Positions 7,516 to 15,102 of a stretch of DNA of 15,121 bases are shown piece after piece (the stretch's first letter is position 1; each line of letters opens with the position of its first letter). Made by a program: the position numbers and the translations under genes. Under the pieces are notes generated by a model. That model was not told the DNA's origin, searched no databases, and worked only from the letters and a program-made list of their open reading frames with translations. This stretch comes from a virus (taxonomy: Duplodnaviria > Heunggongvirae > Uroviricota > Caudoviricetes), in the IMG/VR virus record IMGVR_UViG_3300050581_000228. The stretch is one strand, 5' to 3'.

Positions 7516-7545
7516 TCCCATTTATGGGAATTGGTGAGATTCCCA
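7513..7545. promoter_or_regulatory. Operator-like triple repeat: ATTCCCA / TGGGAAT / ATTCCCA
   Basis: GATTCCCA at 7513-7520 and 7538-7545 with inverted TGGGAAT at 7525-7531; overlaps the predicted -10 and start site. Confidence 0.5.
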
Positions 7546-7560
7546 CCGGAAGGAACCGAT

Positions 7561-8310
7561 ATGTCTACAGCCGCAGGGAAGCTGGCCGATGACGTTCTGC
7601 GCTGCCCCAAGTGTGGGAAGGAGATTACTTCGCTATGCTGCAACCATTGCGGGAGCCGTCTCCCGAGCGAACAACAACGGCTCTATGCAGCACTCCGTAA
7701 TGCACTTCCTTTGGGTGGAATTCCACGTGGGAAACGACCCATAGGCGGGGACTCAGACGATGATGCCGAGCCATTCATCCTTCGCATGTCGCCAGCTTCG
7801 TCAAGCAACGATCTGGTCGAATCGTCAACGTCGGTCAACCACGAGCGTTACACGCCGCGCGAATTGATCGCTCTCGTTCACCAGGCTCTCGGCCAGATCG
7901 ACCTCGATCCGGCTTCCAGCAAGGAGGCCAACAAGGTCATAAAGGCCAAGGCCATCTTCACGAAGCAGACTGATGGACTGAAGCAACGCTGGTATGGTCG
8001 CGTGTTCCTGAATCCACCCTTCGACGATTGGCCTACCTGGATGGCGAAGCTCGACCAAGAGATCGCAGCGCGACAAGTCAAGCAAGCCATCATGGTTGGT
8101 CCGGCGAACATCTCCGCTTTTCGTCCTCTGCTCAAACGCAACGGTCTCCTATTCGTTCCCGACGAACGCCCAAAATACTACGATCCAAACTCCGAGAAAC
8201 TGATCGACCCACCGTTTGGCTCTCTGATGTGTTACATTGGTTCGGCAAGCAAACAGTTCGCCAGGGTCTTCGGATTGCATGGGCTGGTTCTCCAGCCGGT
8301 CAATTGCTAG
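7561..8310 (+). CDS. Phage Dam-family DNA N6-adenine methyltransferase with N-terminal Zn ribbon (249 aa from ATG 7561)
   Basis: ERYTP, IDLDPASS, FTKQTDGL..RWYGRVFLNPPF (motif IV); CPKC...CNHC; GGAAGGA RBS before ATG 7561. Confidence 0.85.
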   Translation: MSTAAGKLADDVLRCPKCGKEITSLCCNHCGSRLPSEQQRLYAALRNALPLGGIPRGKRPIGGDSDDDAEPFILRMSPASSSNDLVESSTSVNHERYTPRELIALVHQALGQIDLDPASSKEANKVIKAKAIFTKQTDGLKQRWYGRVFLNPPFDDWPTWMAKLDQEIAARQVKQAIMVGPANISAFRPLLKRNGLLFVPDERPKYYDPNSEKLIDPPFGSLMCYIGSASKQFARVFGLHGLVLQPVNC

Positions 8311-10248: not shown

Positions 10249-10545
10249 TTAAGACGACAGGCGGGGAGGGGTATTTCCGCCAACTTCGGACCATTTTTCC
10301 AGGCCATTCCGTCTTCCCAGGACGGAATAGAGCGCACGGGTCAACAAATCCCACGCGAGCAGCCGCTTTCGTGGAAAGCCTTCGACCGTCCCGGCCTTCC
10401 AGAGGCGGCCAAGGGCATCTCGCAACTCCACCCGGTAGTGGCCTTGGGTGGATGTTCCTACGCCAGTGTTGACGATCTTTCCGGTCGCAATAGTCTTAAC
10501 CTCGCCGGTTACGGCAGAATGCAGTTCGATCTTCACGACGAGCAC
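10249..10545 (-). CDS. Phage hypothetical protein, 98 aa (MLVVKIELHSAVTG...; GTG at 10545, not 10869)
   Basis: AAGGAGGG about 6 nt before GTG 10545; the extra 5' part of the track ORF is a shadow of the methyltransferase. Confidence 0.8.
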   Translation of the reverse strand: MLVVKIELHSAVTGEVKTIATGKIVNTGVGTSTQGHYRVELRDALGRLWKAGTVEGFPRKRLLAWDLLTRALYSVLGRRNGLEKWSEVGGNTPPRLSS

Positions 10546-11279
10546 GACCAGCCCTCCTTGTTGGGCATCATTCCATGCTCTTCCGCGATCTTCTCGCAGT
10601 AGCCACGGTCGATTTCGATGAGTGTGCATGGGTTGCCGGTCTGTCTGCACACTCGGAGCGTGGTGCCAGTGCCGGCGAACGGGTCCAGAACCGACTCGCC
10701 AGGCAGCGTGGTCAACCTGATGCACCGCTCGACCAAGCCCTCGTTCAGTTGCGTCGGGTGCCAAGGACGGCGCTGCTTGCTGTTGCCTACAACACGGGTG
10801 AAATCGAACACGTCGCCGGGCACCCGGCCGCGCGGGTCGGCCCGCTTGTCGCCGTTCTCCTGCCGCCAACTTGGCACGCGGATAGCGTCAGGGAGCAGCG
10901 GAGCATCGTGCCAACGAAGTCTGAGCAAGGGACGATGATTGTTGCCCAAATCGCGGTGGTTGTGCTGCCCGAACGTGAATACCTGGACGCAGGGCTTTGC
11001 CTCCACGTCGCCGCAGTAACGGCCGATAACTTGCTTGACGGCCGCCCCGATCTCAAACGTCCATTTCGAGTTGTAAGAGAACCAGACCGTTTTGGCCTTT
11101 CGGATGAACACGTTCAGCCACTCGTAGAGCAAGCCGACGTATTCTTCATCCGGGTGACGATCCCTGTAGGTGTCGTAGCCCAAGCCGATATTATCAGGAG
11201 GGTCCGCGATGCAAGTGCTCCACCACTCCTCGGTAGCCTTCAGGTATTTGAGGCAGTCGGCGTTTATCAATCGGTGCAT
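10533..11279 (-). CDS. Beta-class N6A/N4C DNA methyltransferase-like protein with non-canonical motif IV DPPD (248 aa)
   Basis: LINADCL, IADPPDNIG, PGDVF, WHPTQLNEGLVERCI, VLDPFAGTGTT (motif I) and IEID..YC. Confidence 0.88.
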   Translation of the reverse strand: MHRLINADCLKYLKATEEWWSTCIADPPDNIGLGYDTYRDRHPDEEYVGLLYEWLNVFIRKAKTVWFSYNSKWTFEIGAAVKQVIGRYCGDVEAKPCVQVFTFGQHNHRDLGNNHRPLLRLRWHDAPLLPDAIRVPSWRQENGDKRADPRGRVPGDVFDFTRVVGNSKQRRPWHPTQLNEGLVERCIRLTTLPGESVLDPFAGTGTTLRVCRQTGNPCTLIEIDRGYCEKIAEEHGMMPNKEGWSCSS

Positions 11280-11530
11280 GGATCAACGGCCTCCTCCAAA
11301 TCCCACCCCTCGTATTCACAGTCGCAGCGAGACTCCAGGATGTGCCGAATGGAGCGGGCATCGCCTTCCCTTGCCTTCGCCAACGTCAGGCTGCGAACCT
11401 CGTCGTCGGCGTAGCAGCCCAATTCATCGAGTTTGGCGAACAGCCTGCGCAACGCGGATTCCAATCGCTCAGGCGTGTCAGCAAGCCAATGCTGGTTCCC
11501 GTACTTGCCGTAGTAGGTTAGAATCCTCAC
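11267..11530 (-). CDS. Phage hypothetical protein, 87 aa (MRILTYYGKYG...; GTG at 11530)
   Basis: AAGGAG 8 nt before GTG 11530; C-terminal RCDCEYEGW. Confidence 0.72.
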   Translation of the reverse strand: MRILTYYGKYGNQHWLADTPERLESALRRLFAKLDELGCYADDEVRSLTLAKAREGDARSIRHILESRCDCEYEGWDLEEAVDPCTD

Positions 11531-12155
11531 AATCCGCTCTCCTTGTATAGTTGATGGTGCATCGCTTCTTCTCAAAGACCCAGAAGTACGAGTGAAACTT
11601 CCGCGCGTGCTGTTGCTCTTTGAGGTTGTCGCGGATGAGTCGGTTGTTGGCCACCAGGATGAACAGATCGCGGGGATAGAAGCCACTCACGATTGCTTGT
11701 TGCATGATCTCGCAGTGCGAGAACCAGTTCCGTCGGCCGTGGACGACATCCTGACACTTGAAGACGAGAATGCCGTGCGGCTTCAGGATGCGGTGTAGTT
11801 CCTTCAATGAGTCGCGGTAGTATGCCCAGAGGTCAAGGATCGTGGGCATACAGGAAAAACGTCCCCTGATGATCCCCGTGTCCAGATGCGAGGTGGAGGC
11901 GACAAACGGAGGGTCAAAGATCGCCGACGATATGCTGCCATCAGCTAAAGGGAGTCGTCGTGAATCGGCCTGAATGACGCCTGCCGCCTGTGGCGCGAGA
12001 TCGAACTTGTACTGCGGCTCTGGGACTCGACCGTCCTTGTAAAAGCCGCCGGTGCTGTAGGTCACATCGCAATCGAACCTTCCGCCGCAGAACAACCGTG
12101 CGATGTCCGCCAAGAGCGCTCCTTGATCGTCGTTTACAGAACGAATGATGTCCAC
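11478..12155 (-). CDS. Phage adenine-type SAM-dependent methyltransferase, motif I before motif IV (225 aa)
   Basis: DCDVTYSTGGFY (motif I variant), QADSRRLPLADGSISSAIFDPPF, LHRILKPHGILVFKCQD and HARKFHSYFWVF; GGAG RBS. Confidence 0.85.
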   Translation of the reverse strand: MDIIRSVNDDQGALLADIARLFCGGRFDCDVTYSTGGFYKDGRVPEPQYKFDLAPQAAGVIQADSRRLPLADGSISSAIFDPPFVASTSHLDTGIIRGRFSCMPTILDLWAYYRDSLKELHRILKPHGILVFKCQDVVHGRRNWFSHCEIMQQAIVSGFYPRDLFILVANNRLIRDNLKEQQHARKFHSYFWVFEKKRCTINYTRRADCEDSNLLRQVREPALAC

Positions 12156-12157
12156 CG

Positions 12158-13408
12158 TTACGCTCCGAGTGCAAAATGTTTCTCATTGATGGAATTCAGA
12201 CGGGCGGCAGCGATTTCGCAGGAGTGAGCGTCCAACTCGACGCCAACGCACTGGCGTCCTAATCGCTTGGCCGCCACGAGGGTCGTTCCACTGCCTGCAA
12301 ATGGATCGAGGATTATGCCGCCGTTGGGCGTCGATGCGAGCGTCAGAAGGTATTCCATCAAGTCCAGGGGCTTGACGGTCGGATGGTCGTTGCCCGGTCC
12401 TCTCTCCTTCTTCGATGCCTTGCTGCAATAGAAGAATCGAGAGGCCCCGCCCGAATCGCCGTAAGTGCCGTTGGCAGTCGCCGTATCGGGGAAATCGCCG
12501 TGATAGCCGCCTTCGCCTTTGCTCTGGGCGCGTTGCTGACCGGGCTTCATCTTGCCGCTGGTAAGCGTGCCGCTCTGGGCGTCAAGCTCCTGGGCTGCCT
12601 CTTCATCGAGCAGAAGATTCGCCGGAAAGCGGCCCAAACGTTGACCGGCCGTTCGATGTGTTTCCTGCGCGCAACTGTCTCCGTATTTCCCCTTGCTCTT
12701 GGCGGCCTCGGGACTACGAGCGTGATTGCAGACGCGATCATCCGTTCCAATCCGTCCGGCATTGATGTTCAATCCTGCTACGCCATGTTTCACCGCATTG
12801 GTTGCGAACGTGCCGTCCAACGGCTTCATCGCCAGGATGATCGGCTCCCACGCTGGCTTGAGCGCCGTCCCCCAACCTTCCCAACATTTGGCAAGATGCG
12901 TGGCCGGAATCGTTATCTTCTCAACACCGTATCCGAAAATCGCCTTGTTGTTCTGGTTGGCCTTTGCAGCCGCGTAGGTGGAGCCATTGGTCTTTGCCTT
13001 TTCAACATCTCCTCTGACAATCTCCCCAATTACCGCCCTTTCGACTCCCGCTTGCTTGTCAATGGCTTTGGAAATGTCCAACGATTTCGGGAAGCCTTGC
13101 CCATGAAGCCACATGAGACAGTCTCGAATCTCCCAGCCGGCGTCTTCAATCGCGCAGATCAGCCGATGAAAAGTTCGCGTGCCGCCAAAAGCCAGCAGGA
13201 AGGCTCCCGGTTTGCAGATATTGGAGATGACTTCCCAAAAACTCGGACCAGGAACGTCGAAGTCCCAATCCTTCTCCATGAAGCACAGGCCATAGGGCGG
13301 GTCGGTGACAACGAAGTCCACCGCGTTTGGCTGCATCGCCACGGGTAGCACTTCCCGTAGATCGCCGTGGTAGAGCGTGATGTTGTCTTCTTGGTAGTAA
13401 GGCTGCAT
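12158..13408 (-). CDS. Beta-class N6A/N4C DNA methyltransferase, large (416 aa from ATG 13408)
   Basis: LYHGDLRE, VVTDPPYGL, GFPKS, PAWEPIILAMKP, GRFPANLL, SRFFYCSKAS, HPTVKP, ILDPFAGSGTT and GVELD; GGAG RBS. Confidence 0.95.
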   Translation of the reverse strand: MQPYYQEDNITLYHGDLREVLPVAMQPNAVDFVVTDPPYGLCFMEKDWDFDVPGPSFWEVISNICKPGAFLLAFGGTRTFHRLICAIEDAGWEIRDCLMWLHGQGFPKSLDISKAIDKQAGVERAVIGEIVRGDVEKAKTNGSTYAAAKANQNNKAIFGYGVEKITIPATHLAKCWEGWGTALKPAWEPIILAMKPLDGTFATNAVKHGVAGLNINAGRIGTDDRVCNHARSPEAAKSKGKYGDSCAQETHRTAGQRLGRFPANLLLDEEAAQELDAQSGTLTSGKMKPGQQRAQSKGEGGYHGDFPDTATANGTYGDSGGASRFFYCSKASKKERGPGNDHPTVKPLDLMEYLLTLASTPNGGIILDPFAGSGTTLVAAKRLGRQCVGVELDAHSCEIAAARLNSINEKHFALGA

Positions 13409-13409
13409 G

Positions 13410-14213
13410 TCATGCTCCAAGGGCGAAGTGAGACAACCACTCCTCGTTAGCCAAGGCACGGTTGCCGGAGATGCCGCCTCGCGTGCGGCTCTTGCTATCA
13501 GCCAAGCGGACAGCTTCCCTGCTCAGCGGCTTGGCTTCCGATACCCAACAATCACGCTGGGAGGCGTAAGCGACCACATCGAAGTCGTCACCATAGCCTG
13601 TTGTGTTTGCGTAGGGCGGGTCAATGTAGAGCGCGCCCTTGCCCGGATCGAAGTCTCGGACATCGCAATGACAGGCATGTATGCCACGCATCCGCTCGTA
13701 GATCGCCACGACACGCTCGTAAAGCGTGTTGGGCATCGGCATCATGGGATTGACGACGGACTTGCGCTTGGCAATTCCATTGGGCTGCCAGAAATCCCGA
13801 AACGTTGTGTTCTGCCAGCGATCAGCCTTGATCCAGATGGCCTTGCCGCCGAACGCGCACGCCTGCAAGATCAGGTAGACATACGGCGTGTCCACATGGG
13901 CCGGCTGCTTGGAAAGCTGCTTGACGTAAGCCTGAATTAGCGGCCGGTCAGGAATCTCATTGAGCAGCTTGCGGAACCGATTCAGATTGAAGGTTCCCCT
14001 GCCGATCGCTTCCCAGAAGATGCCCCACGGCCCAGAGTCAACCATGTGGAGCAGCTTCGGATTGAACCCGCGATTCACCAGTTCGATGGAGACCGTGCCG
14101 CTGCCGCAGCACAAGTCATAGAACGGCTCATCGAATCGTGGCTGGATACGATCCAGGATGGCGGCTGCATATCGGTGCTTTGCGCCCTGGTAAGTCACAG
14201 GGGCGGTAATCAT
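13410..14213 (-). CDS. D12-class (Dam-like, alpha) DNA adenine methyltransferase (267 aa)
   Basis: YQGAK (motif X), FYDLCCGSGTV (motif I), YIDPPY (motif IV); ATGA overlap with dut. Confidence 0.88.
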   Translation of the reverse strand: MITAPVTYQGAKHRYAAAILDRIQPRFDEPFYDLCCGSGTVSIELVNRGFNPKLLHMVDSGPWGIFWEAIGRGTFNLNRFRKLLNEIPDRPLIQAYVKQLSKQPAHVDTPYVYLILQACAFGGKAIWIKADRWQNTTFRDFWQPNGIAKRKSVVNPMMPMPNTLYERVVAIYERMRGIHACHCDVRDFDPGKGALYIDPPYANTTGYGDDFDVVAYASQRDCWVSEAKPLSREAVRLADSKSRTRGGISGNRALANEEWLSHFALGA

Positions 14214-14623
14214 CGGCCGGTGCTGGAGAAGCCACCCTCCCCTCGTTTCGTGTCGGTCAGTTCCATGACCTCTTCGACCGGCCCTTGCTTGACCTCTTGG
14301 AGGACGAACTGCGCGACTCGATCACCGTGCCTTACGACGTAGACGTGATCGGTGGAGTTGAACAACATGACCCACCACTCGCCCCGGTAGTCCTCGTCGA
14401 TCACGCCGCCGAACACGGTCAGGCCCTTTCTGCCCATCCCGCTCCGGTCCCAGACCAGGGCAGCGTGACCCGGCGGTAACTCGGTGGCAATGCCGATGGG
14501 CACCATCGTCACCTTGCCCGGCGGGCATTCCGTCTCTTTGCAGGCATAGAGATCGTAGCCGGCCGAGTGAAACGACCGGGTAGGCAGCTTGGCGTCGGGA
14601 CTCAGTAGCTTGGCTTTAATCAT
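14210..14623 (-). CDS. dut: Trimeric dUTPase (137 aa from ATG 14623)
   Basis: All five motifs: AGYDL, DRSG, GVIDEDYRGE, GDRVAQ, RGEGGFSSTG; GGAGG upstream; ATGA overlap with the deaminase stop. Confidence 0.95.
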   Translation of the reverse strand: MIKAKLLSPDAKLPTRSFHSAGYDLYACKETECPPGKVTMVPIGIATELPPGHAALVWDRSGMGRKGLTVFGGVIDEDYRGEWWVMLFNSTDHVYVVRHGDRVAQFVLQEVKQGPVEEVMELTDTKRGEGGFSSTGR

Positions 14624-15102
14624 GGATACCAGACCTCCCCGTTGATAAGGGCGGTGCATTCGCCGATCGGCCCGTCGTATTGGAGCGTCTCGACGCCGGC
14701 CTCACGGAACATCTCGTTGCCGTAGGCGATGGTTTCTCGCCAGTGTTCCGGCGTGCGATCGAACATCTGCTTGTGTCCAATTACTCGGACGATGCCCGCC
14801 TGGATGATCGCGCGGGCGCAATCGGCGCAGGCATACCACGGGCAATAGAGCGTCGCGCCTTCCGTAACCTCGCCCTTGCGGGCCGCAGAGAAGATGACGT
14901 TCCGTTCCGCGTGCTCGATGAAGGCGTACTTCTTCGGCCGCTCCAGACGCGGAGCAACGCCGCTCGGGAAACTGTTGGCTGCACTGGCGATCGGTCGGCC
15001 TTCTCGGTTGACCAGGACCGCTCCATTCTTCGTGCTCGGATCGTCCGAGTAGAACTCCGCGACACGATAGGCTTTTTGCAGCATCTCTTGGGCGTACTTC
15101 AT
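14620..15102 (-). CDS. dCMP deaminase (cytidine/deoxycytidylate deaminase family; about 160 aa, start at ATG 15102 or GTG 15111)
   Basis: SDDPSTKNGAVLV, N.FPSG, EHAERN (HAE), CADCARAIIQAGI (CxxC) and MFREAGV. Confidence 0.92.
   Translation of the reverse strand: MKYAQEMLQKAYRVAEFYSDDPSTKNGAVLVNREGRPIASAANSFPSGVAPRLERPKKYAFIEHAERNVIFSAARKGEVTEGATLYCPWYACADCARAIIQAGIVRVIGHKQMFDRTPEHWRETIAYGNEMFREAGVETLQYDGPIGECTALINGEVWYP

Follow-up and report, generated by a model that had tools for sequence, protein, structure and literature searches.

In mycobacteriophage Island3, the last 18 residues of gp67 recur as a copy at the end of gp68, which lies downstream and is absent from the sister phage; the same work cites a boundary-sequence model for the junctions of phage modules, that of Clark et al. 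2001 (PMC3029335). Here we describe a comparable junction in a 15,121-nt stretch of viral DNA (the window; IMG/VR record IMGVR_UViG_3300050581_000228), which is one end of a 99.5-kb provirus and in which two DNA methyltransferases encoded in tandem end in the same peptide, HFALGA. As in Island3, the end of the upstream gene (about 18 to 19 codons) is found copied, at the level of DNA, at the end of an inserted gene, and both the Island3 case and the hotspot of the window have an empty-site allele. The window differs from Island3 in showing at least two nested events that involve three methyltransferase families, and in that the retained core coincides with the Shine-Dalgarno (SD) region of the next gene.

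Two further systems are relevant to the comparison. In translationally coupled gene pairs with an intragenic SD, the SD likewise lies in the last codons of the upstream gene and the next start follows 1 to 3 nt past the stop, as it does here; Planctomycetes use SD sequences at an intermediate level (PMC6728339). Unlike a plain intragenic SD, which would account for Gly-Ala only, the His-Phe-Ala-Leu of the window requires a duplication. The tail also resembles the tmRNA (ssrA) tag, a ClpX C-motif 1 degron with the pattern aromatic-small-Leu-x-Ala at a free C terminus (PMC7652416, PMC10862746), from which it differs in having Gly in place of the penultimate Ala, in being genome-encoded, and in having an origin that is fully accounted for by fold end, SD, and duplication. 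Read as a scar, the tail is of a kind already described in phages (PMC3029335); it is unusual in having reached three methyltransferase families and in coming so close to the tags of the host group. We consider it likely that the shared tail is mainly a nested insertion scar that carries the ribosome-binding site of the next gene.

Results

HFALGA and a stop codon are read on the minus strand at both 12158–12178, the end of a beta-class methyltransferase gene, and 13410–13430, the end of a D12-like methyltransferase gene (21 nt each). Both stretches translate as described in an earlier note on this DNA, and its statement on the codons holds: five of the six differ, at position 3 only. The stop codons differ as well, and the DNA identity between the two tails is 15/21. 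The two enzymes are unrelated, as had been noted; outside the motif they show no significant similarity, the top-scoring BLASTP segment being the motif (E 0.77). We estimated the probability of six identical residues at about 4e-8 and that of the four residues without an SD explanation at about 1e-5 per pair, and a shared tail by chance is excluded. A scan of the rest of the phage, which the note had proposed, found that HFALGA ends no other ORF of the 99.5-kb genome. When the back-translated motif was searched in viral contigs, the seven matches were all inside short open frames and were taken as chance. Because relatives of the provirus sit in one Thermoguttaceae chromosome and one Pirellulales assembly, its host probably belongs to the Pirellulales/Thermoguttaceae group. 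In three host-order genomes, a single codon-restricted pattern for [F/Y]ALGA followed by a stop gave no true match.

The upstream member of the pair is a D12-like (alpha-class, Dam-fold) DNA methyltransferase of 267 aa (13410–14213, minus strand; phrog_56, with homologues that carry PF02086), preceded by a dUTPase gene (14210–14623, minus strand; PF00692). Its structure model matches E. coli Dam, T4Dam, and DpnM. The earlier note had regarded His-Phe as unexplained by the SD. In the D12-like enzyme, however, these residues end strand E258-263 and, as judged from the model, are the family-wide end of the fold, because the model places residues 258 to 263 in the last β-strand, with four residues protruding beyond, and the wider D12 homologues (n = 109) share a conserved terminal EWLSxF motif (Phe in 66/107). 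The tail of the D12-like gene is about as variable as the rest of the gene, with five changes in six codons versus a mean of 1.25 per codon among 15 alleles.

The Gly-Ala codons of both tails form predicted SD sequences for the gene that follows. GGAG at 13415–13418 (minus strand) stands 6 nt ahead of the ATG of the beta gene at 13408, and GGAG at 12163–12166 (minus strand) stands 7 nt ahead of the GTG of a third methyltransferase at 12155; in this respect the earlier note, which had raised the SD as a caveat, was right. The 16S rRNA of the host of a related prophage (G001) ends in a standard anti-SD, which is consistent with both GGAG sites serving as SD sequences. Of the gene ends in these prophages, about one in four contains GGAG or GAGG. 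The retained tail block starts about 20 bases ahead of the next start (−22/−23), and about 20 bases before a start is roughly the ribosome footprint. The only allele without an SD, L030, has lost the Leu too (a single case); in L030:10804–11350, where the SD is gone after the D12-like gene, the next region resembles a frameshifted gene.

The beta gene (12158–13408, minus strand) encodes a beta-class N6/N4 DNA methyltransferase of 416 aa (PF01555, E 7e-27) and appears to be an inserted cassette. Most beta homologues end straight after the last helix, the tail runs about ten residues past this usual family end, and a search with the last 40 beta residues led to four clusters. Two longer beta relatives, P0131 and P0132, are intermediate: after the natural end of the family they carry a stretch that aligns to the last 19 codons of the D12-like gene minus three, and the window copy is five codons shorter still. 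The beta tail (12158–12193, minus strand) is an in-frame but decayed duplicate of the end of D12, attached where the beta gene would naturally stop, and the putative donor segment comprises the last 19 D12 codons and the stop (13410–13469, minus strand). A 9-nt deletion is present in every copy, and a further 15-nt deletion in the lineage of the window. Upstream of the motif, the beta and D12 sequences match at 22/30 nt, a value reached in 0/100,000 shuffles. The DNA alignment identifies the shared ending as homologous DNA, and a convergent origin of the two tails is ruled out by this homology upstream of the motif.

Each of the seven codons of the beta HFALGA-stop can be found in some D12 allele. 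With certain of these alleles the beta tail shares 18–19/21 nt, versus 15/21 with its own neighbour. The synonymous pattern between beta and D12 is therefore largely D12's own divergence. The earlier note had read the pattern as a peptide kept while the DNA diverged; selection on the beta tail is not needed, because D12 alleles supply every codon. The in-frame deletions need no peptide selection either, because the other frames at the beta end would fuse the enzyme to the next gene or overrun it by 26–78 codons. Concerted evolution of both tails within a genome was also rejected, as beta tails are closer to each other than to their own D12. The beta gene is internally mosaic, its closest relative changing by segment (40–96% identity).

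The D12-like gene is a fixed upstream anchor. Immediately after it lies a cassette hotspot, occupied in different alleles by one of at least four genes: the beta gene in the window, L001, L031, L037, L039, L050, L070, and L114; a Dam gene in L049, L051, L079, and L080; a 114-aa gene in L048 and L071; and an 87-aa gene in L073–L078. The beta gene is missing from the site in L073–L078, L049, L051, L079, L080, and L071. In the empty-site alleles, the D12-like gene abuts either Dam (L049, L051, L080) or the 87-aa gene (L073–L078), and empty and filled sites share the same junctions. The Dam start lies 2 nt after the D12 stop in L049, L051, and L080, and the same start lies 2 nt after the beta stop in L037, L039, L070, and L114. 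Similarly, the order stop, 1 nt, ATG precedes the 87-aa gene both after the D12-like gene (L073) and after a tailed Dam gene (L114, L115). Split genes in L070, L079, L080, and L114 suggest assembly indels; the same junctions are seen in L037, L039, L049, L051, and L115.

Exchange points among alleles map to the tail block. Since cassettes change exactly at this block and the element encodes a tyrosine integrase at 1–1221, the 21-nt block could be imagined as an integron-like site for a site-specific recombinase. We hold this to be extremely improbable: third positions vary freely, the copies, of about 60 and about 20 nt, are unequal in length, no further gene-end copy was found in the genome at up to four mismatches, and many hotspot junctions use no tail block.

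The usual downstream anchor is the 87-aa gene (11267–11530, minus strand). It has no Pfam or PHROG family. Most alleles keep it on the downstream side of the hotspot, and the genes that stand upstream of it are of several kinds. No match to it came from 401 genomes of the host class, in a search run without a positive control.

A third family also carries the tail. In some alleles Dam (PF05869) ends in [F/Y]ALGA, one base before the 87-aa gene (L114:6452–6937; L115:1206–1691; L070, ending at 10534), and in L070 and L114 three tailed enzymes stand in tandem. One Dam cluster shows four different endings. In the survey of homologue C termini proposed in the earlier note, the beta tail recurs in only four of the best 120 homologues, and an LGA end was found in 0/109 wider D12 homologues and 0/150 Dam representatives. 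The presence of one tail on three unrelated enzymes of the same activity class, up to three of them in tandem, would suit a docking motif through which one partner of phage or host origin, for instance at the replication fork, gathers several methyltransferases. Such a role is very unlikely, as only genes at this junction carry the tail, the other methyltransferases of these genomes do without it, and the tail has neither the Gln nor the terminal aromatic residue of the clamp-binding consensus.

The window has no Dam gene at this position, which is occupied, with an identical start codon, by the third methyltransferase (225 aa; 11478–12155, minus strand; phrog_24333). The note had set its ending, PALAC, beside HFALGA. 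We ruled PALAC out as a third tail: it arises where the third enzyme reads on, in another frame, through the 87-aa gene's first ~18 codons, homologues stop at varied points after a conserved FWVFEKK, and an allele of the same cluster, P0307, ends differently. The fourth methyltransferase (248 aa; 10533–11279, minus strand; PF01555) is tail-less in every allele seen. A further Dam-type methyltransferase (PF05869) is encoded on the opposite strand (7531–8310, plus strand), which brings the count to five methyltransferase genes within 7 kb.

Discussion

The earlier note had named SD constraint plus an old junction duplication as the outcome that would overturn its own proposal, and this is what the relatives show. 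We propose that, in this Planctomycetota prophage family, the 3′ end of the D12-like gene is where new methyltransferase cassettes come in or replace one another, and that the last ~20 bases of this gene double as the translation-initiation region of whichever gene follows. An incoming gene that joins inside this 3′ end would retain an in-frame copy of it, and owing to the copied end the displaced gene would keep a stop codon and an SD just ahead of its start. A D12-to-Dam junction may have given the beta gene about 19 codons; whatever lay outside the ribosome footprint would then have decayed, and the last seven codons, from −22/−23 of the next start, would have stayed. The Dam gene may have taken a shorter copy from a D12-to-87-aa junction. 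Once present, such copies could be used as short homologies for further exchange, and recombination through them may be ongoing. The peptide would require no role of its own in the recipient enzymes. Taken as a scar, the tail illustrates clearly how a phage gene cassette can join an operon and leave translation of the following gene intact. It also calls for caution, as the copying of a constrained gene end can yield shared C-terminal peptides with synonymous divergence.

The alternative function proposed in the earlier note was degradation, with a timed pulse of methylation as its effect, and we judge it less likely than an insertion scar. In its strongest form this reading holds that the tail is a scar by origin and a degron by function: [F/Y]ALGA would be a dual-coded mimic of the host tmRNA tag, with Gly for the penultimate Ala because the same bases must read GGAG, and the tailed enzymes would be ClpXP substrates whose methylation is limited, selection having aided the spread to three families. 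We consider this unlikely, although it has several points in its favor. The resemblance to ssrA is real and is in fact nearer to the FALAA-type tags of the host group than to that of E. coli; what fails is the penultimate Ala, which is Gly in the tail. We compared 23 tags from the order of the relative's host (17 found by ARAGORN and six by a pattern that fixes positions −5 and −3), all of which end in [F/L/Y][A/S/V][L/M]AA. Four of five positions match, and 48 of the 51 tailed proteins (D12 28, beta 17, Dam 6) fit the tag profile at these four, the exceptions being two with Thr and one with Ser. Variation within the tail (F to Y/L, A to S/V/T, L to M) parallels that among host tags, and 0/370 outside homologues have a tag-like end. 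Moreover, the beta tail extends about ten residues past the family end, and Dam, a third methyltransferase family, carries the tail as well.

The substitution counts, which are small, lean toward selection on the peptide. The Phe-Ala-Leu codons of the beta and Dam copies show four synonymous versus two nonsynonymous changes (hand count, p 0.07); adding a further protein, for which there is no DNA sequence, raises p to 0.19. His-Phe-Ala-Leu has changed less than the eight codons that precede it (1/10 changes, p 0.10). The synonymous lean may, however, have come from D12 alleles by recombination.

Several observations argue against a degron. All tails end in Gly-Ala, and terminal Ala-Ala is found in 23/23 tags. 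In an E. coli 5-mer screen the terminal Ala-Ala is described as critical and Gly was depleted by ~50% at all positions (PMC10862746), and changing the penultimate Ala raises KM, in a text that is silent on whether Gly was tried (PMC7652416). GFP-YALAA is degraded and GFP-LAA is not; the D12 overhang, four residues in the model, falls short of five, the length that sufficed on GFP when three did not. Tail-less beta and Dam alleles are common, the two neighbouring methyltransferases are always without a tail, and L030, the sole allele to have lost the SD, is also the one without the Leu (a single case). No other gene among about 380 in three prophages (G000, G032, and the G001 prophage region, scanned with a simple home-made gene caller) has a tag-like end, and on this basis we rejected a phage-wide degron program. 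A phage-encoded tmRNA was rejected as well, since the Rfam match at G000 33711–33727 is only 17 nt, below the cut-off, and in a tRNA-like stretch.

A literature search found no phage methyltransferases with ssrA-like ends. The DNA methyltransferase CcrM of Caulobacter is a Lon substrate and would be a functional analogue if the degron reading held, although protease and signal differ. It is doubtful that the 21-base element is at once a ribosome-binding site, a recombination boundary, and a host-tag-mimicking degron; if it were, each cassette entering the hotspot could pick up a ClpXP signal. A signal that moves along with the insertion site would then determine how long a phage methyltransferase lasts, an arrangement undescribed in the literature searched.

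Three further features of the window and its relatives were noted. A second cassette hotspot lies between the dCMP deaminase and dUTPase genes (window 14210–15102; L030, L037, L071, L079); it is empty in the window and in L073 and in relatives holds a C5 methyltransferase, a PF01555 enzyme, or an unassigned ~420-aa gene. At about 20 kb and 50 kb into the stitched G001 prophage region (L207–L212) lie two ORFs (122 and 112 aa) that share their last ten residues and possibly belong to a repeated element. Finally, L114:1–842 encodes a ribonucleotide reductase with an intein domain.
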